A stretch of 64,000 bases of DNA, taken from positions 310,001 to 374,000 of the forward strand of contig JAAOMT010000040.1 of the NCBI GenBank assembly GCA_016748015.1, written 5' to 3'. Within the stretch, counting starts at the first letter, position 1. Every line of letters begins with the position of its first letter. The notes beneath the pieces were generated by a model. It had not been told where the DNA came from and did no database searches. It saw only the letters and a list, made by a program, of their open reading frames with translations. This document shows, piece after piece, positions 10,273-61,621 of the stretch. The position numbers and the translations under genes were made by a program. This DNA is from Geosiphon pyriformis uo1 (lineage: Eukaryota; Fungi; Glomeromycota).

Positions 10273-11157
10273 TATTACTCATAAAAAGAAAAACAGATAT
10301 AAAGAGAATAGTAGACCAATGAGTGAATAGTATGTAGCACATGAGCACATTGCTCAGCAATATAAAGCAATAATAAAAATCATGGCACATTGCTTAGCAA
10401 TGTGGAGCAATGTCAGAAAACACGGCACATTGCTCAGCAATGTGGAGCAATGTTAGAAAATTAGAGCATATCACTCAGCAATATAAGCATTACTCAAGAA
10501 ATCATAACACATTGCTTGGGAATGTGAGCAATCTTGTAGAACATTAATTATATATATATAGCAGTAGTATTAAAAATAGAAAGATAAGAATCTTTTAGTT
10601 AGAAATCTTCCATCTACAAATATTAAATAAATAAATCATTCACTATTCAAATCCACTCTCCACTATCAACACTTTATGTTGATAGTAATTAATATCTAAC
10701 CACATTAGAACAATAGCTCTTGATCACAGCTATTGACAAGGTACTAACGTGTACATTGCCTTGGCTCATTTCTTTATTTTCTTTTATTTCTTTCTTTCTT
10801 TGATTTTTACTGTTATATACTAACTGATTAAGGATTAAAGCACTGAGTGATTAACGTCACAGATAGCCTGGTAAAAGACCCAGAAATAAGAGTAAAATTA
10901 TATATATATTAATGGATAGCTTACCAAAAGGGCACAACTGCCAGAATAAACCAGCCACCAAGCTGAAAACAGAAATTGGGAACACAACTTACCAACTAAC
11001 TATATCATCATTAAATCTTTATCCATTATACAAAGAACTCAACTCTAAAACCTTCAGATACAACCAATGTATCAGTATTACCAGTATTGTTAAGATATTA
11101 AGCACTAAGTTACAAATTTGTTATTTGATTTGAGACCCCAAATAATCATCTGTAAAA
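10273..11157 (+). repeat. 5' LTR of B
   Basis: Direct repeat of 19376-20236, with U3 dyad repeats and a TATA-like run at ~10548-10560. Confidence 0.95.
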
Positions 11158-11159
11158 TT

Positions 11160-11176
11160 TGGTACTTTCTGTAAGA
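11160..11176 (+). promoter_or_regulatory. Primer-binding site of B (decayed)
   Basis: TGGTACTTTCTGTAAGA lies 2 nt after the LTR and is a transition-decayed version of the A/C/D PBS. Confidence 0.75.
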
Positions 11177-11219
11177 TATAATCTTACAGAGAACACCACC
11201 AACCATAATCATCTAAACA

Positions 11220-14200
11220 GTGGCAGAATCTGAAGAAATAGGAACAAACCATTTAGGATTTGCAAAATCCTTATTCCAACACTATTACACTCATTTCGGA
11301 TTAACAAATAATAGTTGGCCAACCAAATCAGCTTTTAATTGCTACATTAACAAAAGAATAGTATATTACTTGGAAGACCAAGAAGATCCAGAATTTACTT
11401 TCAACAACTTCTTTAGTGAATTACTCCAAAGCACCATCTTTCCACAAAATTATCTATTTGCACCCCTAATTACAGAAATAAACAGGGAAATTGAAAAATA
11501 CACCAAACAGAGATTTCTTATCACTTTTGCAAACAAAAGCAAAGAAAGGCTACAAACACCAGCAGGAACACCAAAGCAAATCCAACTACCCACTTGGAAG
11601 AAACAAAAATTTAATTTACCTGCTAATACATCATATTACTATATACTTGGAAGCACTATCAATATAATAAACATAGCTACAACAAGCGCGACAATGCCAC
11701 TAAACAGAATCCCATTCCAAAGTAAACAAAAAAAGGCAGAGTTATTAGGAACATACAGTGATTATTTCGAGAGATTTAAATCATGATCCCCAACACCATC
11801 AGGAATTTGATTACTACCACCACAACCAGATTTCAGAGCCATTAGTCCTTGGGAAATAACCGACTCCAAGGAAGAAGAGAGTAGTAATCAGGAAGTTAAT
11901 AAGCAAAACCCAATTATAGAACATTCAGAAATTAAAACTTTGGTTAATCAAACTTCAGAAAATCAGAATAATCAAAATTCTGACATAATTAATCAGCACT
12001 TACCTCCAGTAATTGTAATCAATCCATCACCAGTTCTACCAAACACCCAACAGCAACAACAGCCACAACTGCTACCTCAACAACAAATTCAGCAGCAACT
12101 ACAACCCAACTTAGATTCAATGGCATATGTACCAATAGTCAAACTCGAAAAATTCACTGGTGAAGAAGACAATGCCCAAGTATGGCTAAATGATGTGGAA
12201 AAAGCCATTGCAGCTAATAGATGGAATGATGCCTGAGCCATGCAAGTCATTCCATATTTTCTCCAGAATACTGCTAATTCATGGTACCAAAGTCTGATCA
12301 ACAAACCCCAAGATTTCAATACATTCAAAATTGAGTTTTTAAGATACTTTAGCAACAATAACAGCATTAACAGACTAGCAAACACATTTACTACCATCAA
12401 ACAAGGAGAAAATGAAGCAGTCACTACTTATTTAAGATGCTTCCACAAAAATTTGTGCCAGATCCAAGCCATTAATGCCAATTATTTCATAGTGGCCCAG
12501 ATCCTAAATCAGTTTATTTGTGGATTATGCAGTAGTATTCTACAATGCATATGTTTATTGCATGTTATCAATCTGCAAGCAGCCATCACAAATGCCCGAG
12601 ATTTTGAAGCTGCTGAACTTAAAGCTAACCATGCCCAAGCCATTAACCTAGTAATGAATAGATTATCTGAATTGGATTCCAAATTGAAACAATTTAGTGA
12701 TTCCATCAATCAGAAATTAGAGAGATACTTAGCTAACAATTGCACAATTTATCAACCATTACAACAACACAATAATTCTGGAAACATGAATCATTTCTAG
12801 AATCAGTCACATCTATTATTGTCAACCAATCAACAGTGGCAACAAGAAATGCGTGTTTGCCACTATTGTGATAAACAAGAACACCTACAAATTGATTGCC
12901 ACCATCACTTAAATAACCAACAATCAGGAAATCAATATCAAAACTCTGATCACTGGTTTCAAATTCTGAATAACCTATCAAACTCAGAGCCATATCATTA
13001 GAATTACATACCTATAACACAGCAGCCACTTTATCATCCATCAGTATATCAAGTGCCAATTTATTAATTGACAATACCAACAATTTATCAGCTGCAGTCA
13101 CAACTCATTTATCAGCTGCAGTCTCAGATAATCTATCAGCTTCAACAAATTCAAACACCGCCACAGAACTTACCTCAAAACAGAACCCAAGGGCCAAAAT
13201 TGACCCAACAAAGCTGGAGATCATTGATGGTAGTTCACTAACCAATCCCCAGTTTTTCCACACAACCAGCAGAATTTTGACAATGGAATTTGGGCACCGA
13301 GTACACCCAAAACCTGAATTTTCAGAACTATTTAAGTCTTCTGGTTACCATAGAAAACACCCAACCCAATAATCTGGAGACCAACCAACAACCAACACTT
13401 ACCAGCAACATTCCGCCAGCTATCATCACTGAGAACAAATCACTGGATGCTATCTTCCCATTTAAACTCGAAGAACTGTTGACCACACCATTATTTAGTG
13501 GAGCTGCTCTAAAAGAAAAACCTATTACAGTCATGTATACTGATGCCAAAGTTGATGGCCACTTCATCAAACTGATCCTAAACAGTGGATTAGCTGGCAG
13601 CATTATTACAAAACAACTCATAGACCAATTAAGTCGCCAAGTTGATTGTGCTGCCAACACCAGAATCATAACCACCAATAAAGCAACAAAAACTCCCATT
13701 GGTAAGATTGACGACTTCTCCATCAAAGTCAATGATATTATGGTTCCAATCAAAGTACTGGTCATGGAAGCCACCCAATACCAAGCACTTGTTGGGAATG
13801 ATTGGCTATCCAAAACCAACGCATTGTTTGATTAGAATATGCAGAAGCTTCAAATTAGTCAGAACAGCTGACACACATGCATACCAGCTATGTGTAGCCA
13901 TTTTAAGACCACCAACTTGACAACTCCACTTATTGAATTCAAGGAAGAGAAGAAGAAACCTACTTGAAAAGCCTACCAAGTTTCCTGGGCCAATATTGAA
14001 CACAATAAACTGCTGCCAGTACCTTTGTGGGACAACAACAGCAAAAAAAAGCAGAGTAAAGAACTTACCTGGAAAGCCAACCAAGCCTGGGAAACTAACA
14101 ATGACCAGAAAGAACAAATAAATTGGAAATGGAAAGAAGACAAAAAGAGAAAAGAAAAGAGGAAGAAAGAAAAACCAACAACCGACAGCAACTCCACTTA

Positions 14201-17200
14201 TAATTCCTACACTACACCCTACCAATCCACTTATCATTACCCAAAACTGGTATGTGTCAATTGTGGCAAGAAATTGTCGTTAATGGGCACTTGTTGTAAT
14301 GACGATGAGAAATACACTTTGGCAACAAAATTCTACTGCTGCTCATGTGTTATTGAACACTTTGGAAGGCCAAAACGGGTTGGAAAATAGGACAATGAAT
14401 CATGTTTGGCTTGTGGAGAAACTCTTCTAGATGAAGAAATGTGGAATGACATTCCTGGGCAAAAAAAAACATGTAATAAATTGTGTTAATACACGATTCT
14501 CATAAGTGACTGGGTGAGGAAAAAAATGCCCATAAACGCTGCCTGGAGATGAGCTTTCAAATGTTTGGATGGATGTTCACATGACAATGACAAAATTTGG
14601 TGAATAGCACTTGCCAAAATCAAAGGAGCGACACCAGAAGAAATAAAAACAATTAAAAATAATCTATCTGAACCTATAGAACTCAACTGGGACCCAAAAC
14701 CAGTCATAAATCTTCTAAATCCAGAACAATTCCATGAACATTATTAAGAGCTAGCACCTATGAGAAAAAAGCAGAAGCAACACTTGGAAGAAATCAACAC
14801 TTAACTATGTGACCACTGTTTGATTCCATATGACTTTCAATATTGTAATAAGTATGACCTCATTTACAATCTACCACTACACATGATTTACATAATTCCA
14901 GAGGAAAAAAAACCAATCAGCAACTGTGCATTGGAATCAGAATCAATTTTCAATCTCGATTCAAACTCCAACAATGATGATAATAAAAATAATAGTTCTA
15001 GCTCTACTCAAAATTGCAACAAAAATATCAGCAATTCAGACTCTGATTTAAATCCCAAAATATATATTGCACTTCCTAATCTATCTAAGGAACAGAAACT
15101 CAAATAGTATAGTAACAATAATGAAGATATCATGCCAGAACACATGCATAATACCAACGCAGAGTTTGATCTGAGATATCTGGGAAAAAAAGCCATCAAA
15201 TTGAAACCAAATTTGCACATATATATTGATCTCAAAATAGCTTTGGAAATTTTAACAACAATCATGGTTTAATTAGCATTTAGAAGTAGCCTAGCAAAAA
15301 AAGGAATCAACATCAGAGGAGAAATAATTAACACAGGATATATAGGAAATATTATTGCTATGCTACAAAATGACTCTGAAAAGACCTATATCATAGAGCT
15401 AAATGAAAAAATAGCACAAGCAATATTTCTACCTCTGGTAAAAATAGCTCAATTAGTGTCAGTAGGAAACAGAGAAGAATTAGGGATTATTGCTAAAGAA
15501 ATACAGGAATTCGGATCAACAGGTAGAATAGACATACCAGTTAATATAGTAGAGGAAGAGGTTATTGACAAATAAGAAATTATTTCAACCCGTCAATCAA
15601 TTTCTATTCTACCATATAACCAGTATATGTTACCTATAAAAAGAGAAATAAAGAATCAGGCTCAGTTGTTTGAAGCAGAAGTCACCATTTGTGAATTAGG
15701 GGAGATTGGACTTACTAATCTCTATATATCAGCCAAAAGCCCTAAAAACATCAAAATTCCCATCTACAACACAACCAGAAGTATTATTGAAATACCAAAG
15801 AGAACTATTATTGGATATTTGACTACTGAAGTTGAGGATTAACCACCAAATTACATTCCAGATTTTCTACAGCTTTGCAGATATGTGGACATTACATCAT
15901 AAACCATCTACAGACAAAGTAAATGTTATCTACTCCAACCAGAACAATTGGAACAGATGAACATGAGGAATCTAGATTCACTTCAATGGATGCAATTCAA
16001 GATGTTACTCAACAATTTCAATGACATCTTTGCTAGCAAAAATGAATTTGGCTGAACCAACATCATCCGGCATCAGATCAAGACTGAAGATGCAATGCCA
16101 ATTAAACAAAGAGCATACAGAGTACCACCAGCTAGCCATGAGATCATTTATTAAGAAATCAACCAGATGCTTGACAATAGACTAATTCAGCCATCAATGA
16201 GTCTATGGTCATCACCAGTAATACTAGTTCATAAGAAGAATGAAAAAATCCATTTTTGTGTAGACTACTAAAAACTGAATGGAGTAACAAAAGGTGATAG
16301 CTATTCAACTCCAAAGATCCAAGAACTATTTGACACTTTTGGAGGAAATAAATGGTTTTCAATACTGGACTTAGATAGTGGTTATTAACAAGTAGCCATG
16401 AATCCAGCTAACAAAGAAAAAACAGCATTCACCACAAGAAAAAAAAATTTTGAGTTTGAAGTCATGCCATTTGGCTTGATGAATGCTCTAGCAACATTCC
16501 AATAACTCATGGAAATTGTCTATACTGGATTACTATAAAAATCAGTAGTCATATACTTGGATAACACCAATGTGTTCTCAAAAACATTTGATAATCATTT
16601 GTATTATCTCCAACAAGTATTCAAAAGATTAAAAAGAGCTAGATTGAAACTAAATGCAATTAAATGTTTCTTTAGAAAAACTGAACTCAAGTTTTTGGGA
16701 CATGTAATGAGCAAAGATGGAATCAAAACAGATCCAGACAAGATCAAAGTAGTTAAGAACTTTCCAGTACTAGCCAACTTGTCAGAATTAAGAGCATTTT
16801 TGGAATTTACAAACTACTATTGCTGCTTCATCAAGAACTTTTCTAAACTAGCTCAGCCACTTCACCATCTACAAACCAAGAATATGAAGTATAAATAGAC
16901 TGAAGCTTAACAAGAAGCATTCGACACATTGAAAAAAAAGCTTATCCAAGCTCCAGTATTGATGTATCCAAATCACAACAAACCATTCATCATTACTATT
17001 GATACATCAGGTCAAGCATTGGGAGCAGTATTATCACAGAAAGGACCTGATGGAAGAGAGCATCCAGTAGCTTACACCAGTAGAAGTTTAAGTCCAGCTG
17101 AAAAAAACTATGGAACTTTAGCACTGGAACACTTAGCAATCTATTGGGCTGTCATTAAATGGAAAAAATACTTAAGCCAAAAGTTTGAAATATATACAGA

Positions 17201-17357
17201 TCACAAAGAATTGACTTCAATTCAGAAACAAGAATTTGCAGACAATTGCCATGCCAGATAGAAAATAGAACTTTTACCATTCAATTATATAGTACATTAT
17301 AAAAAGGGAAAAGACAATGAAAATGCTGATAGATTGTTGCGAATAAGACAAATCTAA
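11220..17357 (+). pseudogene. gag-pol: B ORF1: single-frame gag-protease-Cys-rich-dUTPase-RT-RNase H polyprotein with nonsense mutations
   Basis: ORF fragments at 11220, 11940, 12240, 12819, 13290, 14025, 14820, 15360, 15627, 16557 and 16929 share one frame. Motifs: CHYCDKQEHLQIDC, LILNSGLAGS, YLDNTNV, IDTSGQALGAVLSQ, YTDHK. Confidence 0.92.
15100..15530 (+). pseudogene. dut: Trimeric dUTPase domain in B pol
   Basis: Five dUTPase motifs in order: AEFDL, RSSL, GEIINTGYIG, KIAQAI, EFGSTG. Confidence 0.88.
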
Positions 17358-17387
17358 AAACATTTCAACCCAAAAATATAATAAAAG

Positions 17388-18763
17388 ATGAACACACAAA
17401 AATACCAACAACTTCAGCATTATATAAATACTTAATCATTCAAGGAGAAATTATCTCAAAAAGAACAAAACAACATAAAACAGCAATCAAAATATTTCAT
17501 CAATTATCAAAATATACTTTACTGGAAAAACAGAAGAAATCCAGACCAACCAACCAAAGTAATTACAAAATCAGAAAAAGAAACAATATTGTTTAACATG
17601 CACTCAGATCCAACAGCAGGATATTTTTATAAAAAAGCAACCATAAAAAGAACCAGAAAAAAATATTATTGGCCATCAATGTATCCAGACATCATCCAAT
17701 ATGTTTAAAGTTGTAATGCTTGTTAAAGAAAAAGTGGAACAAAATTTAGTGAACCATTAAGACCAATCAAAGTAGGACAACTATTTGATTACATTGGAAT
17801 TGACTTAGTCAGACCATTAACAATCACCAGTAAAGGCAACAAATATATTGCAGTAGTTATGGACTATCTCACAAAATAGCCAGAAGCAAAAGCCATTCAA
17901 AGAGCAGATGCAGAATCCATTGTCAAATTCATCTATCAAAATTTGATATGTCAACACGGATGTCCAAAAGAACTACTATCAGATCAAAAAATTCATTTTG
18001 TGAATAAAACATTAACAGAATTAAGTCAGAGATTTGGGATAAAAAGACCATTATCATTATTATATCATCCACAAACTAATAGACTAGTTGAAAGATTCAA
18101 TAAAACATTGTGTAAAGCAATCACCAAAATCAGTCAAAAAAACCAAGATGAATAGGATTTGTTTATACCATCAGTATTATTTGCTTATCGAACAATAAGA
18201 CAAGATACTATACAAACAACACTATTTAAATTAGTATATAGTAGAACAGCAACATTACCAGTTGAGATAGAGGTCAACACATATCCAACTGAACCAATAA
18301 CAGAAGCTAATTTCTAAGAAACATTGTTGAGAAGAACATATGACCTAATAGAACATTAGAAAACAGACAATGAAAAGCAGCTGATAACATTCAAAAGTCT
18401 CAAGAAAAACAAAAAAAACAACATGATAACCAATTACCAGATAAATCAGTTGAATTCAAGATTAGAGACAAAGTACTTCTACATCATACCAAAGTGGAAA
18501 AACAATGGAGTGGAAAATTTGACCCCAAATGGGATAGACCATTTTACATAGAAAAAATTCTTGGAAATAGAACTTATAAATTAAGATGGGACAACAAAAT
18601 CTTAACCAAAGCAGCACATGGTGATTGACTGAAACCATATTACCAAATAGCATTATCATTTACCAATAACATTCCATAATTGGAAATACAATGAATACTA
18701 GTTCAACCAGAGGAGATTCCATGAGATCTGGAACCAATCATAATCATTGGACCAAACACGTAA
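17388..18763 (+). pseudogene. int: B integrase (HHCC-DDE-SH3-like), starting at its own ATG
   Basis: MHSDPTAG..YYWP..CNAC, IGIDLV, ELLSDQ, HPQTNRLVERFN, WSGKFDPKWDRPF; ends DLEPIIIIGPNT*. One 1-nt deletion near 18350. Confidence 0.9.
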
Positions 18764-18772
18764 AATCAAACA

Positions 18773-19361
18773 ATAAAAGAGTATATAAAAACACAGTATA
18801 CATGACAAAGGCAACCAAGAAAAAAAATGGAAATACCAAATCATATTTACATTATAGCTCAACAATTATTCCAGGCCTTAAGTCAACAACTTTAAGGCAT
18901 AGAAATTATCGTTAACAACCAAACAATTTGCTATCAAAACACCAAAAAAAAGACAAAGAATACACCATATTAGCAGTTACCAAAAAAAATTGGAAGCAAT
19001 GGACAGAACAACTTCCAATATCATACTGTTACTACCAGTTAGATTGAAAGTTAAATATTCAAGAGTTGTATATCAACAAATCCAAGAAGATATTTAACCA
19101 AAACATAATACAACAAATTGAAGAATTTATTGGGAAAAAGACAAACTCAACACTACATATGAGAACAATTTACTGACTGCACAATATATTTCAGAACTAT
19201 CCAGAAATACTGTTATACTCTAACATAGAAATCATAACCATTAACCAATGGGGAAAAATGTACAAGTAGAAAACATAAAAAATAAAGTCAAACAAACAAT
19301 ACTAGAAAAAGAAGTATTAAAGCTAATTCAGAATGAAGATTTTGATGGAGCTCAATATTAA
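18773..19361 (+). pseudogene. B ORF3, unknown function
   Basis: Reconstructed QQLFQAL..EIIVNNQTI and YYQLD*KL..MRTIY*LHNIF align with D ORF 32787-33233; ends DFDGAQY* at the PPT. Confidence 0.7.
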
Positions 19362-19375
19362 AAAAGAGGAGATAA

Positions 19376-20236
19376 TATTACTCATAAAAAGAAAAACAGA
19401 TATAGGGAGAATAGTAGACCAATGAATGAATAGTATGTAGCACATGAGCATATTGCTCAGCAATATAGAGCAATAATAGAAATTATGACATATTGCTCAG
19501 CAATATAGAGCAATATCAGAAAACACAGCACATTGCTCAGCAATATGGAACAATGTTAGAAAATTAGAGCACATTGCTCAAAAAATCATAGCACATTGCT
19601 TAAGAATGTAAACGATCTTATAGAACATTAATTATGTATATATAGCAGTAGTGTTAAAAATAGAAAGATAAGAATCTTTTAGTTAGAAATCTTCCATCCA
19701 CAAATATTAAATAAATAAATCATTTACTATCCAAATCCACTCTCCACTATCAACACTTTATGTTGATAGTAATTGATATTTAACTATGCTAGAACAATAG
19801 CTCTTGATCACAGCTATTGACAAGATACTAATGTGCATATTGCCTTGGCTCATTTCTTTATTTTCTTTTATTTCTTTCTTTCTTTGATTTTTACTGTCAT
19901 ATACTAACTGATTAAGGATTAAAGTGCTGAGTAATTGATATCATAGATAGTCTGGTAAAAGACCCAAAAATAAGGGTAAAATTATATATATATTAACGGA
20001 TAGCTTACCAGAAGGGCACAACTGCCAGAATAAACCAGTCACCAAACTGAAAACAGAAATTGGAAACACAACTCACCAACCAACTACATCATCATTGAAT
20101 CTCTGTTCATTATACAAAAAACTCAACTCTAAAATCTTCAGATATAACTAACATACTAGTATTACCAGCATTGTTAAGATATTGAGCACCAAGTTATTGT
20201 TATTTGATTTGAGACTCCAAATAATCATTTGTAACA
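19376..20236 (+). repeat. 3' LTR of B
   Basis: Preceded by PPT AAAAAAGAGGAGATAA; ends TGTAACA. Confidence 0.95.
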
Positions 20237-20299
20237 CCACCAAAAATTATCTACTATTTAATTAAAATAAACACCAAAACACATTAACACCTAATATAT

Positions 20300-20917
20300 T
20301 GTTACGGGTTGGAGTAACAAGCTAATGGATAGCAAGAGAGAACAGGATTGTAGGGTGATAGAAATAATCAAAGAGAATTCAACTTTAAAGAGCGAATTAA
20401 ATGAATATGGATTCAATGTGCAAGATTAGTCTCATAAAATATCTCAGTCGCTATTCTTTTTAAAGGTAACTGGGGAATCTGAAGGTAGAGGGATAGTCTG
20501 TACTGTTAACAATTGATAACTGCTGGTATAATTCTATGCCTCATGTCAGCACTTTTAGAATTCAATATCAGGTATCAACTTGTGTTCTTCAGTCACATTT
20601 ATTTAAATAATCTTCAAATACTACAATTATATATGTCAGGAAAAGGCCAACAAGTAATTTTTTATCCTAAGATGTTCGGATACTTGAAGATAGGGAAAGA
20701 GAAATTAGCAATAAGAGAGTGATTGAGATGAAAGTTGTTATTTTTATTTATTTGATTCTTGTCTGAGAGATGATTTTCTACAACTAAGAGACTCATTGCT
20801 TATATAGCTAATGAAAGTGGTCAATGATCACTATCTAAAAATAGAGTGACTAATTATATAACATCAGTGACTAATACATGTGATAACTAATAAAAATTAT
20901 GGGTTTCAACCATAACA
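20300..20917 (-). repeat. 3' LTR of C
   Basis: TGTTACGGG...CCATAACA; direct repeat of 27252-27905 lacking 36 bp. Confidence 0.95.
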
Positions 20918-21542
20918 TTATCTTCTCCAAAAAGATTGAGCTCTGGCAAAATCAAGCTATTTATAGGGTATTCTAATTGAAGGTTTTTGTCTAACTCAAA
21001 ACTAACTAGTTTGTTGAAGTTTTTTGTGGATAAAATATATAGTACTTGAGGCGAAATAAGCTTTGTATCCAAGAGACCAAATCTTTGTATAAGAGTTTTG
21101 GCTCTTCTTGCAATGGTCAAAACTCTTGGAACATCTAAACATATAATGCCCAAAATTTCACTTGTATCTCTGAAGTTGTTTTTTTTATGAGCTTCATTTC
21201 TTCTATGATTTCACCAAGACAACCATAGAGTTCTAGTTGCCTTTTATATGACAAGTTTTTGTCTATGAGCAAGATTTTCTTAATCGTTTTTCCAATTGTC
21301 ATGGAAGGTGTAAGTATTGCTGCTGTTATGCTTTCCAGCAAATACTTATCCATTTTGCTACCAATTTTTTCTCTTCTGGTAGTAATTTTCTTTGGTCTAA
21401 TAACAGTATGTGTTCTACTGTTATTAGTTATAGTGGTTTGTTTTCCAATAGTCAGAGTAGCATTTGGATAATTTTTGATCCAGTACTCATGGAGAGTGTA
21501 GAAAGCGTTTTGAATGTTTTGATTTAGAAAATAATTGTTCAT
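20887..21542 (-). pseudogene. C ORF3, unknown function (frameshifted near 21150)
   Basis: ORFs 21135-21638 and 20887-21153. LYGCLGE..IARRAKTLI..LYILSTKNFNKL parallels the ORF3 pattern of B, D and E. Confidence 0.65.
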
Positions 21543-25655: not shown

Positions 25656-25657
25656 GG

Positions 25658-48281: not shown

Positions 48282-51200
48282 CTACGCAATTATATTAATT
48301 GAAACTGGGTTGCCAATACCTGAAAAAAAAGAGCAAGATTTGCAAAAGCCAAAATGGACACCAAAAGCTTCAGCAACACCAAGCAGTTTAACCACACCAT
48401 CTGAGAATCTCGAAGTTAAACCAGAAATTGAGACGGAAACTAAGCCATCCACCAGGATCAGGCCATTTCTTTCCATGTAAGCACAATGCTTAGCACAGAC
48501 CAACCAAATGTTACTCCTGAAAGCAATACATATAGAGCATACAAAATCAGCAATTTTAATGCCAGCAACTTTGGGAACATGGAAGACAGAAACAGTCTCC
48601 TGAAGCCATCCTTTGAAAACAAAACCCTTGTAAAGAGTTGAGAACACTAAAAAATCCAAGACACAGGCTGACAGCAGCTGTAAAACACTTGAAGCAGAGA
48701 GAGAGAGACCAGAAAACACCTTCCAAGAAAACATACAGAATTCCAAAACCTGACGACGAGCTGCATCATCAATAACACAAGAAAACACCTGATTAGACAC
48801 CTTCACTTCACCACAATACAGACACAAAACACTAGGATAACATTTATCATAAACGCATTTTCAAACAGCCATGGAAAGCCAATGGTGCAAGACCTTCATG
48901 AAGTAAGTATGAATATCAGCAGTGCACCTGCTGGTGAAACCAGTCACCATATGCAAATCAGGATGCCAAACTCTGGAAGAGGCAAGCCAATCGACATTCG
49001 AGCACAAATCACCAGCTAGGAACCCAGAACTGGAACCGACCTTCCAGTGCGTCTGACAGACAGAACAAAAAACATCATGAACAAAGTGTTTAGAATTGCC
49101 TGAAACAATACCACCACCCGCCAACAAAAACCGTTCAGCCACACAAGGAGGGAGAAACCAATTAGAGAGAGCTGCAGCGTCAGTGATACTATCAGTGCAA
49201 TCATTTCCCAACACACCAGAGTGGCCCTTAATCTTGTGCCAGCTAACCTTCAAATTCTTTCCGCATATAACATTCCTAATATGCCAGCACTCAACCCAAC
49301 ACCAATTGCAAAAGTCAGGACATACCAAGTCAACCTCTGACTTGCAAGCATCCAAAGCTGCCTGGCTATCCAAAAACAGGCGAACAGAATGATCCACAGA
49401 TACACATTCCAGAGCCAACACTACAGCCTGCAACTCCACCAAAGTAGATAACATCAAACCCTGAACACAGACACCTAAATCCAAGTCAATGTCCTCAAAA
49501 AAGGCAACAGCCCCGGCCCTACAACCAGTCATGCCCAAATTTTTTACTGACCCATCTATATACACAGACAAACTATCAGCACCAACCTGAGAAAGACAAT
49601 CACATACAGACACAAAACCATCAGAACCACAAATGTCTGCAGGGCCAACACCACTCAAGGCCAATAGAGAGAGAAATGCACTACTGAGAAATGCAACAGA
49701 GCACCCGAACCACTCAGGAACTAGGCCACAAAGATCCAGTTTCTTCTACCACTTAAAGGTGTACCAGTCGAAGATATCCCCATAATGATCCTGAAGCTGA
49801 TCCACAAAGGCAATGCCATAACACCAGAGAGAAGGCAAGTATTTTAAAAACAGGGATTTGCTGAGAACAACAGACATAGGCACCCCATCACAAAACTGAA
49901 AAGAGCTGGTCAAGGAGCCACCTAAAGACAAATTGCATTCAAGAAGAATGTGTACCATACCTGACAAGAAATTATTGGAAATGCTGACACAGATATGAGC
50001 TGGTGAACTTAATGAATGAATGAGGCACCAGCACAGAACTTGCAAGTCATGAGACCTGTGACTAAACAATTGACCTAGAACCCCGCAGAAGTTTGCAAAA
50101 CTAATAAGTGAAGCAATCTTGCTTTCAGACTGACATTGTGAGAAGGACTTCAGACCATAAAAAAAAAGATGATGAATCGTGTCACTAGGAAAATTGAGAG
50201 GAAGACCAGATTTAAGTTTTAAACTCTTGTGAATCAGAGCATCCTACTTGTCACACACACTAATAGGGACAAAGCTGAACTGTGTTCTGTAGCTGACTAT
50301 AGGTTGGAGAACTGCCAACACCAGGTACAAGAACTGCTTATCTGAAACTGCTTTCTTTAGAACCAAATTACTGAAAAAACAAACGTCTGAATGCACTTTA
50401 GCCAAACTAGACTTAGAAAAACCATCAGTTGAGAGAAAGATACCAAGATACCAATGAGATTCGTCTTTTTTGGTTACAGAAATGGGTAAACTACTAATAA
50501 AAAGAGACGGATTGCTGATCCTGGCATTAATAAGAATGGCTACAGTTTTGTCATTATTAATTGAAATGTCATTAATTCGAAAAAATTCACTAGCAATATT
50601 GAGAATATGTTGAGTAGCAGCCTGACTGCTGCCAACCTAAATCGTGTTATCAACAAAAGCCCCAGCAGTGAAAAAAGTAGAAAACCCAGCCTGAAATTCA
50701 GCATGACCACTCCTAAAGACAAAATGGGAATTGAGTCTATACCCATATACACTCTCTTGACGCTTAACTTTGCACAAAAGAGGATCATAAAATATGTGCC
50801 AAAGAAGAGGGGAAAAAACTTTCCTTTGGTTCAACCCATCATGTACACTATAACCATCAGTTAAATTAAAGTCTGTCATAACCCGATTGGTCCGATTTCT
50901 ATGAATATTGCTAAAAAAAAGAATAAACTTGCCACACATTTTGATCCTGACCAAACACTTCTTGAGATGCTTCCATTCAACAGAGTCATATGCCTTCCAC
51001 ATGTCCTGCAACACCAGCCAGAGCTTTCAATTTTTCTCCAAAGCATCCTCCACAACTGAACCAATAGCAAAAATAGGAGTCTGGGTAGTAGTACCCTTCA
51101 AAACTGAAAAATTATCCCCACAAAGAATATCATGAGTACTGCATGCCAACGATATCCTGTCAGAAAGAATCTTAGAAAGGATCTTATGAGCTGTTTTAAT

Positions 51201-52961
51201 CAAGGCTATTGGTTGGGTATTTGTGAGAACACCTTCCCACTTGTATGGTTTAGGGATCATTGAAACCCAAGCTTTCCTTCAAGGACCAGGCACAGACTCA
51301 TGAGACAGACAAGAATTCAGAAGCACCAAGAACATATCCAGAACAGACCTATTACTATGCATCCACAGCTCATTTGAAATACCTGAAAGACCAGTAGTTT
51401 TACCAATAAGCAGATCAGAAACCACACCAAACAATTCCAAAAACTCAATTGGCTGCATAACACCAGAAAAAGCCTCATCAAAAACATAATCCAACGGCTA
51501 ATACTGACGGTACCACACATCAGGGACATTGGGAACCACCCTACGCTTCCTAGTCCACCCTTCCATGATATCATCCATTCTCGATTTCACAGGACCAGGT
51601 TCCAAAATCAGCTCATCATCCACAACTAAGTGGTCTAAAATGACCTTACAGAAAGGGTGCTCCAAGACGCTCTAAATAGTGTGACTCTTGTTTAGTTTGA
51701 AACTTTCCATCCTCTTTTCGATTACTGACTTGATCTGAGATTCCTCTACACTCTTCAATTTTGCCATTTTAAGTAAGCAATAAGTTTTTTTGACCTTGGA
51801 AAGAGCTGACCGAACAGTATCAAGAGGAGAACTGGAGAGAAAAAGAGATTTGACCACAGAGGCATTATCATTATCAAGAGAACTCCAAACATCCAACAGT
51901 AAAATAAATTTGTCACGACAAATCGACCAAGAAGCTTTAACCAGCTTTGAAATCAAAAGTTCCAACTTATGAAATTTGAATGATTCCTTAGTGAAGACAC
52001 TGTCATAGTCTTTAAATCATTTTTTCTTGAACACCTCATCAGCTGAAAGAACCATTACCTTGTGGACAATATTCCACATCACATCCAAATCTGAGAATTG
52101 CTGGGAGGCAATAAAATCATTAGAGAACATGGCAGCATTAGCTGCCATAACACCCCTAAACTTGTTTCATTTTGCATCATCAACATTCTTAAAATTAAAC
52201 TTCCAATGATCTTTATTCGCCTGTTTGCGAAGAGAGTTCAACTGCACATCCAGCAAACCACCCAAACCCAAAGACACAGAAACAGCCTGATGATCCATTT
52301 CAAAATATTCACCAGCATCAAAAACACCACAGTGTATAATTGCATTAACCAAATTCAAAGAAACCAAAACATAGTCAATCGTTTTTCTAACACCCCTAGA
52401 GTTTGCCTAAGTAGGCATTTTAACAGCTGGGCTTCCGACCAAAGAATTAGCCAGACCCAAATCAAGACACTTCCTAAAACTTGCACATTTATAAGAATCA
52501 TTTTCATTGAAATCACCACCAAGAACAGTAAAAGAAGATTCATTAACAGCCTTTGCAATAAGAGAATTGATTTCACCAGTCTGAAAAAACCGAACTGCCG
52601 AAGAGGCACCAGCATAAAGCTCCAGAATCAATATAGAAAGTTTACCCTTGAAAAATAATTTAATAAACAGGAGCCAACCAGGCACCTCAGAAATCTTGCA
52701 CATATAACAAGCCAAAAAAACATCCAAGACAATAGCAACACCTGCACTCAAGTGACCAGAGTCCAAACCAGAAATGAATACTCAGACACCATTGAACTTA
52801 TCTGCAATCTATGGACGAACCTTACTCCTCAATTTCGTTTCAGTAACAATAGAGACCATATTGTTTATTTCCTTATGCCACCTAATAATATCCTTCTGCT
52901 TAGCAGAATTGTTTATGCTCCTGACGTTGCACATAGCAACTTTCCAGATCAAACTGCTCAT
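48282..52961 (-). pseudogene. LINE-2 ORF2
   Basis: MCNVR..TETKL, LGGDFNE and EMDH (APE); QDMWKAYDSV, GLNQRKVFSPLLW and AFVDNT (RT); VYIDGS..ELQA..LDSQA..KIKGHSGVLGNDCTD (RNase H); CLYCGE..VFSC (C-terminal zinc finger). Confidence 0.92.
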
Positions 52962-53986
52962 TGAGTACAGGGTAGAGACACCAAACACACACCAATACTA
53001 TTCACTTTAGCCAAAAGGCCCAGAACTGTTTCTATTAGACACTTTATGCTGTCTTCCAGCTTAGACATTGAAGATATATCAAAAGACACCACTCCCGTGA
53101 CATTCCCACCACCAGTAGACGCACCTGAATTCTCACTCATCACTACATCCGCCCCTTGATCCTGTGATGAAGGGATCACCAATGGCTGACATTTAGGGCT
53201 AGGCTGAGGAACCATTGGTCTGAATGCATCCAACCTTATAGCCAGCTTACTAACTTGCTTCGTGAGACTGCCTCAGCCGATGTCCTAATTGGAATTTCTT
53301 TAATAACCACAGCCTGATCTGACTGCCCAGAAGATTTTTTGAGATTGGTGTTCACTAGGATTTTTACACTTGCAGCCTTATCAGTAGCTTTTATTAGACT
53401 CAATTTGGAAGTAAACGTCGCTCTGATAATTTCTGAGAATTTTGAGGAGGTAGACGCCCTCCCAAAACCATTAATTCCAGAAAACAATTTCCTTACCTCC
53501 ACAAGCTTTTCCTGAGAATATTTGCCGGCCACCTTATCCAAGCCAATATCCAACGCAAATGACTTCCTGACTTGGAACATTGACCAAATTTTTCATAGGA
53601 GGAGGGAGCTCAAGAGGAGCATCCGAGAGAACACTATCATCATCACTATTTTTTGAGAAATCAATCTTTTCCAATGGCTTGCCCAATGCCTTTTTGGTTT
53701 TAACTTTTGAACTTGTGAGTGTCTGATCATAATCTCCACCAACCAGAGCACCACCTTCACCATAATCAAAGCTGGTTTCTTCTACTAGACACTCCTCTTC
53801 CATATCAATACTCTCAGACTCAGTAGTGTCCCCAGTCTCTGAACTCCATAAACAAACACCAGGAACTTCAGCAGCAATTCCTCTATTATCAACACCCTCT
53901 GCCAATGCACCTCTCTTTCTCTTTTTCCTTGATGCAACTGCCTTAAAACCACTCTTAGAACCAGAAACTTTAACAGTCTTTTTCAT
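52958..53986 (-). pseudogene. LINE-2 ORF1 with internal deletion
   Basis: ORFs 53534-53986, 53236-53580 and 52958-53233; the stop overlaps the ORF2 start as ATGA at 52958-52961. Confidence 0.8.
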
Positions 53987-55118
53987 AACAACAATAACAG
54001 AGCCAACAGTAGCCTTGTAATCGAAAAACGGTTTTGATTTATCGTACTGAATGGTAAAAAAACTTCTTTCAAAAAAACTTTTGACTCTTTTTTGGGAATT
54101 TTGAACGAAGAAGAGAAAGAAGTTTTTTAATGTTTTTTAATGTTTTTATTAAGTTATATATTGTTTTAATAATTTTTTTTAAAATATATTTTTAGTTATT
54201 AATTTAGTTGAATATGTTATTATTTTTATTTTTATTAATAAAATTGTTATTTTATTATATATTAATTTAAATAATATTATTTAAATTATATCTTGTTTTA
54301 TTATTTATTTAATAAATAAATAATATTAATAATATAAACAAATTCTATTTTTTTTGATTTTTTGACTGATTTTGGCTAATATTTTACATAATATTCTATT
54401 AAATTTTTTGATTAAACTATTTGTTTATAAATAATATAGTAATAATAATAATTTTTTTACTTTGAATTTTTAATTTAATTTAGATAATATTTTTGTTTAC
54501 AAAATAAACTTTTTAGTTAAATAACAATTTTTTTAAATATTTATATTGATATATTAAGTTTTAGTAAATAAATTCAACTATTAATTTAATATTGGCTTTT
54601 TAAATTGCTTTAATTTTTGGCTATTTGATAAAATAATTTATAATAATTACAATATATTTATTGTTTTTAAATATTATAACTAATAATCTAATTAAGTTAA
54701 TTATTTAATTAAATAATTGTTTAACTTTAATAAATCTTAATAATTTACTTGATTTTTTTTGATAGATATTACAATTTTATATGTATTAAATTATATTTAA
54801 ATATATAGTCAATAATATGATTTTTTGGTTTTTTTAATTTTTAATTTATAATTAAAATATTTTGTTATTAAATTAAATTGTTTTTTTTTTGTTACTATTT
54901 TTAATAGATTGTTTAGTTTTTATTAATTCTTTTAATATAATATATTTTGGTAAATAAAATAGTATTTAAATTAATAATATATTCTATTTTGTTTATTTTA
55001 AAAAATTTTTTCTTAAACTATTAAATATTAATAGATTTAATTATTTATTTTAGAGCTTTTATAATAATATAGTTAATATTTTTTTATATTTGTTTTGTTT
55101 ACAATAAATTATTAATAT

Positions 55119-55879
55119 TGTTATGGTTAAAACCCATACTTTTTATTAATTATCACATGTATTAGCCACTAATGTCATATAATTAGCCACCTTATTTTTA
55201 GATGGTGATTATTAATCTAATCAATGATCTAATTATTAATTTGATTATTGATCTGATTATTGATCTGATTATTAATCTGATTATTGACCTAATTATTGAT
55301 TTAATTGTTAACCTAGTTATTGATCTGATTATTGACTACTTTCAATAGCTATATAAGTAATAAGTCTTTTAGCTATAGAAAAACATGATAAAAGTAATGA
55401 GATAAAACACACTATTAATTACTTTTTTTCATATCATTTATTTATTTTTTCTATTTTCAAGTATTTGAACATCTTGGGATAAAAAATTACTTGTTGGTAT
55501 TTACATATCTTATCTTTTTCTCTTCTTAATTTGTATTTGTTAGAATTAATCTGAGAAGCAATTGCTTGTTTTTGTAATTTATTGAATAAAAAAACAATTG
55601 AAAAGCACAAAAATACTTATTATTAATTCTAAAAATTACCAAATTAAGACATAAAATAATAGCAGTAGTGTTATTTTGTTAACAATTACAAACTATTCCT
55701 CTATCTTCAGATTTCCAGAAAGAATTTGCAATTGTAATTTTTATAAGATTGATTACACACATTGAATTTTTACTCATTCAATTCACTTCCTTATTGTAAT
55801 TCTCTCTTTGATTATTTTTATCATTTTACAATTCTGTTTTTCCTTGCTATTTGTTAGCTTGTTATTTCAATCCATAACA
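55119..55879 (+). repeat. Solo LTR of the A/C superfamily inserted in F
   Basis: TGTTATGG...TCCATAACA with a perfect ATAT TSD; reverse-complement homology to the C LTRs. Confidence 0.93.
55205..55340 (+). repeat. 12-bp tandem repeat (ATTGATCTGATT-like, about 11 units) in solo LTR U3
   Basis: Visible periodicity; the same unit occurs 1, 2 and 4 times in the C and A LTRs. Confidence 0.85.
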
Positions 55880-58800
55880 ATATTTTTTTTTTATTTTTTT
55901 TATAATAAATTTTGTATTTAAATAACAAATATACTATTTTTTATTTAATATTTTTATTATTATTAGATTTTTTTTATAATAATATTAAATATTTGTAATT
56001 AGTATAAATATTAAATTGTTTGTCAAAATAATTTTTTTATTTTATAATTGTTTAATAGATTTTTAAGTATTTTAATATTAAAATTTTTTAATTTTATTTA
56101 ATTAAACTTAAGTTTTTGTTAGTATATATTACTAATTGTTTTTGTTTATTTTGGTTTTTTTTGTAATAGTACTGTTTTTAATGTTGTATTGAATACATTA
56201 ATTACAATTATAAATGGCTTGTTATAGTTTAAATAAATTAAAACTAAAACTTTAATTAGTTTTTGTTTTAACTTTTTAAAAAAATTTTGTTGTATATTTA
56301 TTTATTTATAATTGATAAAACAGTTAAACAATTGCCAAAAAGTTTTGAATAAATCAACAATATTATTTAGCTAGTTTCAAAAAAAATTTATTTTTGTTAA
56401 ATTTTTAGATCTTAAAAAGTTTTTTATTTTTTTAATTTTATTTAAATTAATCTTAATACTATTTTTCTTATTATATGTTTTAAAAATTTAAGTTTTTTAA
56501 AAAAACATTTGTTAATATTAAATTTTAATTTAACTTATTAAAATTATTTAAATACTTTTTGTAAATAATAAAAATATTTATTAATAGTTTTTAAGAATAT
56601 ATTAATATTATCTAAATAAATAACTATTAATTTTTATAATATACATAAATACATAATTTTTATTAGTTGTTAAAATATTTTTGATATACTAATTAAGCTA
56701 AATAGTATTATATTAAATTCAAAATTTTTTTTTCATGTAATAAATATTGTTTTTTTTTTATATTTAAAATTATGATTACTTATTAGTAATTATTATTTAA
56801 ATTTAATATAAAACTACTTTTTTTTATTAAATAAATTTTAATGATTTTTAAATTCATAAATTTAAATGATTATTATCATAAATAATACTATTAAGCTTTT
56901 AATAGTTTATATAAAGCCGAATTTTTCTATTTTTTTTCTAAATTAATATTATTAATAATAATTATAAATTTATAAATAATTAAATTAATTTGCTATTTAA
57001 TATTTAATTGATTTCTTGTTAGATAATTTTATAACTTGTTAATAATACTTAATATGCTTTTTGTTTAATTAACATAATATTTTTAGTTTTAATTTGGTAT
57101 TAAATAATATTTGTCTTTTTAAATTTATTTTTACTTATAAAAATATTAGCATATTAATTAAATAATACTTTAATTTGTATTTTTTGTAATAAATTCAAGT
57201 TTTTTAAGTTTATTTTCTTTAATTGTTTTGGCTAAAACAAATAAAAATTTTTTTTCTGGTTTAAACTTATAATATAAAATATAAAATATATATAAGTAAT
57301 TAGTCTTCAATTTATAAATTTAAGTATTTAATAATAGTATTAACTAGAACTTTTACATAGTTTTTAGTATTGTTGTGAATTAAAATTCTGATGTTTTTGT
57401 AATTTTTGGTTAATATATACATATTAGTAATAATAATAAATTTATTTTAATATTTTTTTGGTTTTTTCTTAAAAATTTGAAACTAATTTTTAAATTTTCA
57501 AGATATTATTAATAAATAATAGCAATATAATAAAATAAAAACAATGTAATTGATAAACATAAATTTTTTTGTTATATTAATAAACATAGTAATTTTTTTA
57601 ATAGATTTAAATCTATTAATTTTTTTATTAATATTAATTAAGCTATTTTAATCAAAAACAAAAATATAATCTGTATTATTTTTTTGGTTTTATTTTATAA
57701 ACTTTTTTCAAGTTATTTTATAGTATAACAACAATATTTTTTACATATTTTGTGTTAATTATTCTTTTTTTTATACTGATTTCTTTTTTTATTAAACCAA
57801 ATTTTAATATTAATTGTATTATTGTTATTATTAAAATTTTTAATGCTATTTTTAAATCTATATTAGTAAAAAAATAAGGTTTTAAAACTATTAAAATCTG
57901 TTTAAAATATCTTAAGTCAAATCTAATATTTGTATTATAAATTTTTTATGTATAATATTTTTATTATCTTTATTAAATTATTTTAGTTTCTGTTTTATTA
58001 ATAAGTTTAAACATAAAATATATTATTTAATATTAAAAGCAATGTTTAAATTCTTGTTAAATTTAAAAATAGCATTTAAATTAAGATTAATTTTGTTAAT
58101 CTTAGAAATCAAAATCAAAAATGTATAATTGTAAATTATAAATAAAATTACACTTATTATAATATTATATAAAATTAAATAATATTTACAGAGTGTGTTA
58201 TTTAGCTTAACAAATTTTTGCTTTTGTTTTTTTCTAATTAAAGTTAATATTTAATAATATTTGTAAAAAACTTTTAAATTATTTATAAAAAATAAAAATT
58301 AATATAGTATTATTAATTTTGATTAAATTTTATTTTTATTATATATATTTTTATTTTGGAACATTGTTTTATATTTTTTTTATTAAATAAAATATTATTA
58401 CAAATAAAACATAATTTGTTATTTTATTTGTTTTGTTTTTTTAATTAACTAAATTTTTTCAAAATATATGATTAACAATAAAATTTAATTGCTATTGGTT
58501 ATTTTTTATTATTTATTACAATATGTTTTTATTAAAAATAATTTTTTTATAGTTAACAAAAACAAGTTTTAAATATTAATAATTTAGGTTTTTTAAAGTT
58601 TTATATTAATAAAAAATTATTATAATGTTTTTTTTAGTTTAATAAAATATATATAAAAATATTAACTTGTAGATTTTTTTTGTTTTTAAAATTAAATAAT
58701 AGAAATAAGTTGGTTCTGTTATTATTAACTTATAAAACTTAATAAGTTTTAATTATAAAATTTTTATTTAATTTAATAATTAGTACTTTATTAATAATAA

Positions 58801-59075
58801 AATAACTATAAATTATTAGTCTATATATATAATATTTATTATAACTTAATTAAAGTTTTTAAATATTTTAATTAAGTGTAATATTGATTTTAAACAATTA
58901 ATTATTATTAATAAAAACTTAATATTAAGTAGTTTACATAATTAATACTTTAATAAATATAATATTATTATTAATTTTAAAAAAAAGTTGTTAATTTTAT
59001 CAATTAAAGTTTTTATAACTTTATTAATAGTAATAATACATATATTAGTAATTTAATAATTTAATTAGTCTACAA

Positions 59076-61621
59076 TATATACAACTTAATTTCAAATAAA
59101 ATTTTTTTAAGTAATTAAATTTGAAATATTAATCTATTATCATAAAAAACAGCAATATTATAATTTTATTAATGTAAATTTGAATTTCTAAATTACATAT
59201 TTATGTAATTTTACAATTATAATCTATATATTTTACTATAATATATTTGAATTAAAGAGAATTAACTAATTAGAGAATGTTTAAAAATATTTTAATTTTT
59301 TTTAATTATATATATAATATATATATAAAGATAATAACAATTGAATTAACAAAAAGACAATTAAATTTTAAATATCACAAAATAAATAAAAGTTATTATT
59401 TGTGTACAAAAAAAAATTAATTATTAATTAATAATTATTATTATTATTTAAATATTATAATGATCATAAAAATTGTGATTAATAAAAACCAAATTTAAAT
59501 AAAAAAAATATATTAAAAAATATAAAACTAACATAAAATATACTTATAAATAAATAAATAAAATTATTTATTTTTTAATTAAAATTATTACTAATTAACA
59601 AAATTAATATTACTTATAAATATAATAAAAAAGTTCTTAGAATTTCAGAAATTTATTTTTTTAATATAATAATTTAGTTTAAGTTTTTCTTTTTTGTTAT
59701 AATTAAAGTTTGTTAATTATTAAATAAAAGTAATAATTGGTTATATTAATTAGATTTTATTAAAGAAAATTTTTAATTTACTAATATATTATATTTAGTA
59801 AAATATTAAAAACATTTAAGAAAGACTTATAAAACAAAAATTACATATTAATATATTAAAAACATATTTATAAATAATGACTTTAAAGATTATTTTAATA
59901 TTAACAATGGCTTTTTTATAATAAACTAGACAATTATAATGATATTAATAGTTTTTCTGTTTATAATAAGCCAGTAAAAAATAATAATGCTGTAAATATT
60001 GTTAAAAAACTTTAAAAAACAGCATAAAAATATAATTAAGAACAAAACACATAACTATATTACATAAAAGATATATTAAAAAAAATTAATAACAACATAA
60101 AACAATAAAAAAACTCTTATATTATATATCTTTTATAATATCAAAAGATCTGTTAAAAAAATTAATAAAGAATTAGCTAATAAGATTAATATATAAAAAT
60201 AATAGACAAACAATTAAATAATAAAAATATAAATTGTAATTGATATAATAAACTTTCAATAATTTTTAAAAACTTAATATTAGATATTAAAAAAATATAA
60301 ATAATAAATTTAAATATATATAAATAATATTTATTTTTATCCTTAATTTGTAAAATACTGTTATTTAAATATAGAAGCAAACAAGATTATTGTTAATATA
60401 ATAATAAAAAAAGTATATTATACTAAATATATTTATTTTTAAACACATAAATACATAATAATTTATCAAATTTTTTATTTTTATTAATATTATGTCAAAT
60501 ATAAAGCTTTTTCTAAGATAAAAATATTTTTTTTAAGTAAAATCATATATTTAAGGACATAATTAAGATATTATTTTATAAATATTAATAATACAAATAA
60601 ATAAAATTATTTTACTAAAATTTAAATTTATACTATTGTTAATTATTTATTTTAATACAACAAAAAATTATTTGAAAAAACTTAAATATATATATACTAA
60701 AATAAAAAAAATATAATAATTTATTAAAAAATATTTTTAGAAAAAATAAGTAAACTTGAACATAAAATGCTTATTTTTTTAGAAAATAATTTAGAAAAAA
60801 TAATTTATTTTTATTATACATAATAAATGTATTTTTTTAGCTTATAATAAAAGTTAAAGTTTTTAAATTCTTAATAAAAAACAATTTTTATAAAAAAAAT
60901 AATTATTATTTAATAAAAAATAATAAATTTTTAACTAATATTTATAGTTATTTTGTATTTTTTAAGAAAATACAAACATCAAACAATTTTTTTAAAAAAG
61001 TTTATATTATTATATATCTAATAATAGTTAATAAAAACCAAAAACTTAGTTAATTAGATAATTAAATATGCTATTTTAATATTTAAAACATGTTTTTTAG
61101 AATATTAAGTTTGTTTGTATTTAATAATATATTAATTATGGTGCTTTTTTATTATATGTATTTATTACTAAATATATAAATTTCAGCTAATAAAAAGCAA
61201 GCAAAAATGTAAAACATATATTTTAGTAAAAAAATTTAACAAAATATGGTTTTTTTATTAGACTATTATATTTTTAAATTGTGTAAATAACCAAAAAAAT
61301 TAAAACAAATTTTAATTAAAAAAAAATTATAACCAAATAAAAATTGAAATTAAAAGAAATATAAATAAACAATCAAACTTTTTAGCACAAAAAAAATAGT
61401 TAAAAAAATTTATTTTTTTAGTTAAATATTAAATTGTGTTTTATTTAAAGTTTTATTGTAAGTTTAACTATATTAAAAACTTTTAAAAATAGCCAAAAAG
61501 TTAAGTTAATTATATTATGATTATTTATAAACAAAATTACAAAAAACTGGTTTATTAACTTTTGTTTTTATTCTATTTATAATTATTTATTAATATACAA
61601 AAAAAAAATTTTGTTATATAA
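59076..61621. other. Unidentified hyper-AT decayed sequence
   Basis: Homology to F stops at ~59075, strand skew turns A-rich, and I could not recover any motif. Confidence 0.4.

Follow-up and report, generated by a model that had tools for sequence, protein, structure and literature searches.

What has reduced transposons of the fungus Geosiphon pyriformis to about 10% guanine plus cytosine (GC), and whether the process is aimed at repeats, are questions raised by a 64,000-nucleotide stretch of its genome (strain uo1, assembly GCA_016748015.1, contig JAAOMT010000040.1, positions 310,001 to 374,000), referred to here as the window. Self-comparison and translated searches show that the whole window is transposon DNA arranged as two nests (Table 1), and these transposon copies are all the DNA that was analysed directly. 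In the first nest an old long interspersed nuclear element (LINE) on the minus strand is cut into three pieces by the long terminal repeat (LTR) elements D, E and C2, with E lying inside the old LINE and B and C inside E; in the second, the young LINE L2a and, apart from it, a solo C-type LTR have inserted into F, a B-related gypsy element, which is followed by L2b. A preliminary description had called the decay of these elements similar to repeat-induced point mutation (RIP). We find that the decay runs one way, from C/G to T/A, on both strands and in all sequence contexts, that it is about fourfold faster at CpG and favours a 5' pyrimidine, that it proceeds at the same rate in LTRs and internal regions, and that it accumulates until about 10% GC is left. 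It resembles RIP in outcome but does not belong to RIP by context, and its cause is probably a slow mutation linked to the methylation of silenced repeats.

The near absence of changes other than transitions is evident both in LTR pairs and in reading frames. In the first 125 nucleotides of the B LTR pair there are exactly 10 differences, all transitions and none at CpG, so that the earlier count was exact. Over whole pairs with exact ends, transitions and transversions number 76 and 1 in B (861 columns), 48 and 0 in C (618), 96 and 3 in D (970), and 195 and 13 in E (1245), with 1 to 7 insertion or deletion events per pair. The young pairs B, C and D together have 220 transitions and 4 transversions (98% transitions), or 219:4 after masking of gaps, against an expected 4:1 (p=1e-16). 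Two metagenome LTR pairs of similar divergence gave 89:13 (p=1e-4 against the window pairs), and with CpG removed the figures are 71:13 for the comparison pairs and 180:4 for the window pairs (p=1e-4); the two comparison pairs represent one family, and the 79 metagenome loci are from mixed eukaryotes rather than being controls from arbuscular mycorrhizal (AM) fungi. All 12 direct-repeat pairs chosen from the 79 loci sum to 219 transitions and 69 transversions, and those with at least 12 differences range from 2:1 to 12:0. The bias in the window is, as had been claimed, far above that of the comparison LTR pairs.

In B a single frame extends over 2361 codons and contains 39 stops; the earlier account of a frame full of stops at Gln, Arg and Trp codons is upheld in substance, since of the 12 stops to which at least 5 homologues align, 10 fall where most of these homologues have W, Q or R, while the length is 7.1 kb and not 6.1 kb. 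Several of these stops are TAA at W or R, a change that takes two mutations where the codon was originally TGG or CGA. The decay of LTR termini noted earlier is also seen: TG has become TA at the start of both LTRs of B, both of E and one of D, and CA has become TA at the end of both E LTRs and of C2; the ends of C are intact.

An LTR pair alone gives no direction of change, and four separate direction tests were therefore made. At reverse transcriptase (RT) codon sites fixed in at least 90% of 120 outside RT homologues, none of them named Geosiphon, 124 of 371 conserved C/G have become T/A and 1 of 417 A/T has become G/C, with 15 transversions, as expected from the one-way C>T/G>A change first proposed; ancestral CpG pairs appear as TG/CA 16 times and as CG/TA once. 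In the C LTR pair, with two related LTRs as outgroups, at least one outgroup has C/G at 26 of 32 non-CpG differences, and the other 6 cap the share of reverse changes near one fifth, which fits repeat hits. Against the majority of 27,595 contigs in run X1, a comparison of window positions 10200-14100 that bears on polarity and not on spectrum (40 of 315 rows listed, with no long contig), 193 places in the window carry A/T where the majority carries G/C, 74 show the reverse, and 31 show a transversion. The same polarity is found in G. pyriformis proteins encoded elsewhere, where residue changes that point to C>T/G>A outnumber those that point the other way by 961:246 in gag (120 proteins) and by 862:142 in LINE proteins (59 of 91 proteins). 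For this asymmetry the RT outgroups serve poorly as a control, as they come from lineages under selection and not from dead copies. The gross loss between B and F (70% of C/G) was dropped as evidence, because a shuffled F gave 66%; the collinearity of F with B (alignment score 3604, against 811-870 in five shuffles) and the context effect described below survive.

When the LTR-pair transitions are divided by context, the changed fraction is 39/66 (0.59) at CpG, 84/306 (0.27) at CpA, 35/124 (0.28) at CpC and 61/298 (0.20) at CpT. CpG is therefore the fastest context (p=2e-8), with a rate per cytosine of 0.57 against 0.1-0.2 elsewhere once hidden double hits are allowed for, or about fourfold; 82% of differences are nevertheless outside CpG, and there is no preference for CpA (p=0.16). 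The claim of broad-context change is thus sustained, and CpA, CpT and CpC are all hit as described, but CpG, which did not occur in the earlier 125-nucleotide sample, is the context most mutated. The observed/expected (o/e) ratio of CpG is 0.0-0.27 across elements.

The 5' base also matters: the changed fraction in the young pairs is 0.32 after T, 0.29 after C, 0.23 after A and 0.18 after G (pyrimidine against purine, p=0.005), and in the B-to-F alignment it is 0.86-0.88 after a pyrimidine and 0.67-0.70 after a purine (p=2e-8), an effect that is flat in five shuffles. Among trinucleotides TCG is changed at 6 of 11 sites and ACG at 5 of 7, so that TpCpG is not singled out, and ACA is among the most hit (28/94). 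The composition of the elements carries the same mark, with GpC o/e of 0.98-1.22 in young, 1.33-1.66 in middle and 2.14-2.55 in the oldest DNA, and with TpC dropping to 0.56-0.66. Decay simulated with the young rates, in one run per condition, gives GpC o/e of 1.5-1.9 at 20% GC and 2.3-2.8 at 10%; without the 5' term it gives 0.75-1.39, and a CpA model gives CpA o/e of 0.12-0.72 in old DNA, where 1.01-1.22 is observed. Because the 5' signature is present in the young pairs, in the B-to-F alignment and in composition, one process with one signature has acted from F to C. RIP indices computed in 32 segments are mostly negative (TpA/ApT reaches 1.11 at most; it is larger than the substrate index in 7 segments, and by more than 0.2 in 2 of them), so standard RIP indices miss decay of this kind. 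A different non-CpG signature, unlike that of the window, marks the gypsy family of metagenome loci L062 (5961-6852/13151-14008) and L066 (2066-2947/10171-11053), in which CpT is most changed (18/118 and 27/125) and CpC is almost spared.

That the decay is cumulative with age and nesting is confirmed by the conserved C/G lost in RT, which rises from 9/86 (0.105) in C through 14/86 (0.16) in B, 16/82 (0.195) in D and 41/62 (0.66) in E to 44/55 (0.80) in F. Per-copy non-CpG loss estimated from LTR pairs (C 0.10, B 0.13, D 0.19, E 0.44) gives the same order, C<B<D<E, and the order of loss agrees with that of GC and with nesting (B and C in E; L2a and the solo LTR in F). GC is 0.40 in L2a, 0.37 in L2b, 0.36 in C, 0.34 in B, 0.29 in D, 0.21 in the old LINE, 0.20 in E and 0.09-0.11 in F, where 100-nucleotide steps give 0.03-0.18. 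The steps in GC sit at junctions, such as that at 54130 (0.27-0.45 to 0.03-0.14), and F is lowest, as the preliminary description had it; the innermost elements, however, are the GC-richest, and between families GC measures age imperfectly. The exception to the order is the old LINE, which hosts E yet has equal GC, probably because LINEs start GC-richer. For D and E, non-CpG C>T change per cytosine exceeds transversion per site by a factor of about 120-130, a figure that draws on 3 transversions in D and 11 in E, and in B, C and D the loss rates of LTRs and internal regions are equal, the internal regions being high-copy as well.

Along the DNA, 7 of the 8 LTR copies show a balance of C>T and G>A changes. 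Neighbouring changes lie on the same strand in 196 of 345 cases against 181 expected (p=0.048), and none of six single-copy runs tests is significant, so that strand-coordinated clustering, proposed earlier as a check, is marginal at best. There is no short-range clustering (140 close pairs, 144 expected) and no excess of CC>TT (8 same-copy and 9 opposite-copy doubles). The pattern looks like many independent events rather than one or two bursts.

The reading that we favour, at a rough probability of 0.55, is a slow, gradual, methylation-linked and repeat-confined C-to-T mutation of silenced repeats, with the CpG lead produced by a DNMT1-type enzyme and the rest by a broad-context DIM-2-type enzyme. 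Each copy, once inserted, would lose C/G to T/A on both strands; silenced repeats would be methylated in all contexts, CpG through DNMT1-type activity and other cytosines through the DIM-2-type enzyme, and methylated cytosines would become thymine over a long time, in many small steps and probably in vegetative nuclei rather than in one premeiotic burst. The conversion could be passive, or coupled to the enzyme as for Dim2 in Zymoseptoria, and the size of the bias leans towards enzyme coupling or very dense methylation. The confinement to repeats or heterochromatin, the enzyme types and the many small steps are inferred. The CpG lead and CpG depletion fit 5-methylcytosine. The signs of targeting are indirect: fourfold-site GC is 19-37% in five young copies from three clades, and between C and C2 the transversions at codon positions 1, 2 and 3 number 5, 15 and 37, while transitions number 68, 84 and 98; since the transversions gather at third positions and the transitions are spread, the source lineages would have evolved under another regime. 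With a genome GC of 29.25% and 64% repeats (PMC9453076 Table 1), the implied GC of non-repeat DNA is roughly 33% if the window typifies repeats.

The papers on methylation and mutation, cited here from excerpts, concern fungi other than Geosiphon. They describe high CG methylation of transposable elements in Rhizophagus irregularis (PMC8647823), an AM clade said to carry DNMT1, DNMT2, DNMT5, DIM-2 and RID (PMC8298701), transposable elements with CG and CHH methylation in Phycomyces, which has DIM2 and DNMT1 (PMC11258239, PMC7862722), and a DIM-2 that in Neurospora RIP mutates CpA although it methylates cytosines in every context (10.1101/115501). The contrast first drawn with CpG-directed methylation decay is consequently weaker than claimed, since CpG leads and AM fungi are reported to have CG-methylated transposons and DIM-2.

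Several points weigh against the favoured reading. The support for repeat targeting is indirect, being drawn from transposon copies, and known DIM-2 mutagenesis is, in the excerpts cited, strongly CpA-specific (10.1101/115501, PMC8016269), unlike the decay in the window. A review table, as excerpted, gives RID for Ascomycota only (PMC13297926), contradicting the RID of the AM clade (PMC8298701). The two clocks differ for E (0.44 by LTR, 0.66 by RT), and the 3' term of the simulation overshoots CpT and undershoots CpA in old DNA. Finally, fourfold GC in B pol is 18%, and B and F differ there by 31% in transversions, so that errors of reverse transcription could restore GC in the source lineages even if the bias were genome-wide.

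A related reading, which we regard as possible but doubtful, is that an active repeat-targeted mutator of a new kind is at work, coupled to an enzyme, which ignores the 3' base except at CpG, favours a pyrimidine on the 5' side and acts throughout the life of a copy until about 10% GC is reached. If true, Glomeromycota would have their first demonstrated case of mutagenesis as genome defence, and one invisible to RIP surveys based on CpA.

Less likely than the favoured reading is a genome-wide C-to-T bias, in which deamination without efficient repair (weak uracil or T:G repair, or long dormancy) goes unselected in dead transposons and CpG methylation acts on top of it. The lack of CpA or any other sharp motif, the near-random spacing of changes, the roughly constant ratio to transversions in D and E, the low fourfold GC of B pol and the general AT-richness of AM genomes (25-29% GC in five of six; PMC9453076 Table 1) are all what such a bias would give. 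With loss about 100 times gain, however, arithmetic puts neutral DNA at a few percent GC, yet the young copies retain their 19-37% at fourfold sites, and the GC implied for non-repeat DNA also speaks against it; the BUSCO completeness of the genome, 93% (PMC9453076), fits targeted and genome-wide views alike.

True RIP or a homologue of it, a premeiotic process dependent on RID/DIM-2 and triggered by pairing, weak in each of many sexual cycles and with a context peculiar to the lineage, is improbable. In Neurospora, one round of RIP leaves strand-coordinated runs of mutations, linked duplicates are hit hardest, and single-copy DNA is spared. The window shares with RIP in Neurospora crassa and the Pezizomycotina, as excerpted, the restriction to transitions, both strands, cumulative action, AT-rich relics, kept frames and W/Q/R stops (10.1101/115501, PMC12543289), and the slight same-strand excess, the annotated proteins without a near-identical family member (best 86% and 72%), the RID reported in the AM clade in the excerpt of PMC8298701 and the likelihood that many light rounds would blur strand runs can be set beside these. 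It differs in having no CpA preference, with a CpA model that misfits old DNA, weak or absent strand runs with C>T and G>A balanced, linked LTRs hit no harder than internal DNA, mostly negative RIP indices and a host outside Dikarya, and its families reached a very high copy number, so that expansion was not stopped. The label "RIP-like" hence overstates the case, given the context, the lead of CpG, the marginal strand coordination and the equality of LTRs and internal regions. Least probable are editing by an APOBEC-like enzyme during reverse transcription, ultraviolet (UV) damage in a soil-surface fungus and sequencing artefact, because although a 5' pyrimidine preference resembles APOBEC and UV spectra, they are largely refuted by strand symmetry and the age gradient: the strand balance and the lack of clustering and of CC>TT exclude UV and an editor acting on a single-stranded intermediate, each copy is hit to the same degree on its two strands, LINEs and LTR elements are affected alike, loss grows with genomic age, the much-hit ACA contains no dipyrimidine, and the polarity recurs in thousands of public-run contigs and in annotated proteins.

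Among known systems, the gradual, methylation-linked reading finds its nearest likeness in the mitotic Dim2 mutation of Zymoseptoria tritici (Moller et al. 2021, PMC8016269), which in the excerpt is more than 95% C>T, restricted to methylated repeats, gradual and independent of meiosis; the window likewise exceeds 95% (98% transitions in B, C and D; polarity 124:1). In Zymoseptoria, according to that excerpt, CpA accounts for more than 98% of changes and CpG escapes, whereas in the window CpG changes fastest, CpA has no advantage and the rate depends on the 5' base. TpCpG hypermutation in Pucciniomycotina and CpG decay in other Basidiomycota (Horns et al. 2012, PMC3318451) share with it CpG as top target and a rate raised by a 5' pyrimidine, but other cytosine contexts are not raised there in the part of the paper cited, while 82% of window differences are non-CpG and F has lost 80% of its conserved C/G. 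Passive CpG decay of methylated transposons accounts for CpG being most mutated and depleted, but would leave other cytosines near background, against the 180 non-CpG transitions and 4 transversions found. CG methylation of transposons in R. irregularis, a member of the same phylum, fits the CpG depletion, although non-CpG erosion to 10% GC is not described for it in the excerpts (PMC8647823, PMC8298701). Gigaspora and Mucoromycotina are cited in the excerpt of PMC8647823 as having no reported RIP signature. A RIP-like claim outside Dikarya exists for the Ty3-rich genome of Zoophthora radicans (PMC11105155), but its signal, as excerpted, consists of dinucleotide indices that are CpA-type by construction, while the window spectrum was counted directly and is not CpA-type.

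In the literature searched, such decay is undescribed for Geosiphon or Glomeromycota; the G. pyriformis genome paper, which lay outside that search, may mention the pattern. A kingdom-wide survey (PMC12543289) does not name Geosiphon in its main text or in 12 of its 19 supplementary files, and concludes in its section 9, as excerpted, that RIP-like defences are found in few fungal clades and have a preference for CpA in common; a survey of AM transposons gives an LTR content of 41% for G. pyriformis, and "RIP" is absent from its text (PMC11952901). Strong transition-only decay of non-CpA type in a glomeromycete means that CpA-based indices can overlook a heavy mutator. If the decay is repeat-targeted, mutational genome defence would predate Dikarya, and there would be a handle on the function of DIM-2/RID-like genes in AM fungi and on the need for sex. 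Dating by LTR divergence is invalid in the G. pyriformis genome.

The host assignment is supported by the families themselves. A gag piece of B has 222 relatives, and all 120 listed are G. pyriformis proteins (best 86%); all 91 relatives of an RNase H piece of L2a are likewise from G. pyriformis (best 72%), and most relatives of the C RT that bear a name belong to Rhizophagus. The glomeromycete host supposed in the preliminary description is therefore correct, and an ascomycete host, which would have spoken against its proposal, is excluded by the placement of G. pyriformis in Archaeosporales, Glomeromycota. More than 200 G. pyriformis "hypothetical proteins" (P0001-P0120, P0241-P0331) come from decayed gag or LINE frames, each being a single-member piece; many such annotations in this genome are thus decayed transposon pieces, and would raise gene counts and figures for transposons in exons. 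A search of IMG/VR gave no match, and a search of sequencing runs gave one matching run, with no RNA run among the matches listed and next to nothing for X2 and X3.

Table 1. Transposons and dUTPase domains of the 64-kb window (window coordinates)
Feature	Position	Strand	Description
C2	1..2510	-	second C-type Ty3/gypsy copy; gag and 5' LTR, cut by window start; in old LINE
E	2718..31322	+	old Ty3/gypsy; LTRs 2718-3971, 30036-31322; hosts B and C
B	10273..20236	+	Ty3/gypsy; LTRs 10273-11157, 19376-20236; gag, dUTPase, RT, RNase H, integrase
C	20300..27905	-	Ty3/gypsy; LTRs 20300-20917, 27252-27905; Pfam gag, RVT_1, RT_RNaseH, rve
D	31782..41557	-	Ty3/gypsy with dUTPase; LTRs 31782-32752, 40587-41557; perfect target duplication; in old LINE
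Old LINE (LINE-1 of the preliminary description), main piece	41558..46550	-	further pieces about 31323-31781 and 2515-2717; hosts D, E, C2
F	46600..61500	-	oldest element; B-related Ty3/gypsy, 9-11% GC; cut by L2a and solo LTR; ends approximate
L2a	48100..54130	-	young LINE (RT, RNase H) in F; GC 0.40
Solo C-type LTR	55117..55882	-	4-bp target duplication, in F; GC 0.22; from C LTR alignment and GC steps
L2b	61565..64000	-	3' part of second young LINE; 66% identical to L2a; GC 0.37
dUTPase domain of B	15273-15572	+	PF00692, upstream of RT; E-value 6e-10
dUTPase domain of D	36888-37205	-	PF00692, upstream of RT; E-value 5e-14

The elements were delimited as follows. Each of the elements B, C, D and E is marked by an LTR pair and by a target duplication of 4 bases, and Pfam confirms gag, RT, RNase H and integrase domains; B, C and D show the TG...CA LTRs, target duplication and gag-RT-RNase H-integrase order of Ty3/gypsy elements. 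The target duplication of E contains one transition, and its gag-pol is collinear with B on either side of the inserts. C, with its perfect target duplication, is the least decayed of the LTR elements; C2 is 79-82% identical to it and has an LTR ending in TA instead of CA, after which LINE residues restart at 2515. By tblastn with L2a as query, the old LINE has residues 3-1118 in its main piece (1118 at 41553), 1141-1268 at 31707-31316 and 1271-1332 at 2700-2515. An LTR pair for F was looked for within the window, and none was recovered.

Pfam finds the dUTPase in B and D, and inspection of the C translation by eye revealed none there; the domain could be a response to uracil in host DNA, or merely a clade trait. 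In B (11217-18300) gag and pol share one reading frame, with a long insert between protease and dUTPase, while C appears frame-shifted between gag and pol. A decayed B-like LTR fragment lies within E in opposite orientation (4676-5127, minus strand), is about 69% identical to the B LTRs and is probably an older solo LTR. C-type LTRs contain a 12-base tandem repeat (55225-55337, 27771-27818) whose copy number differs between both C LTRs, C2 and the solo LTR, and the B LTR has a 40-base repeat; variation of these repeats accounts for most LTR insertions and deletions. C is inserted about 60 bases from the right end of B (gap 20237-20299), and the target sites of C, E and the solo LTR are all AT-alternating, hinting at a preference for such insertion targets.

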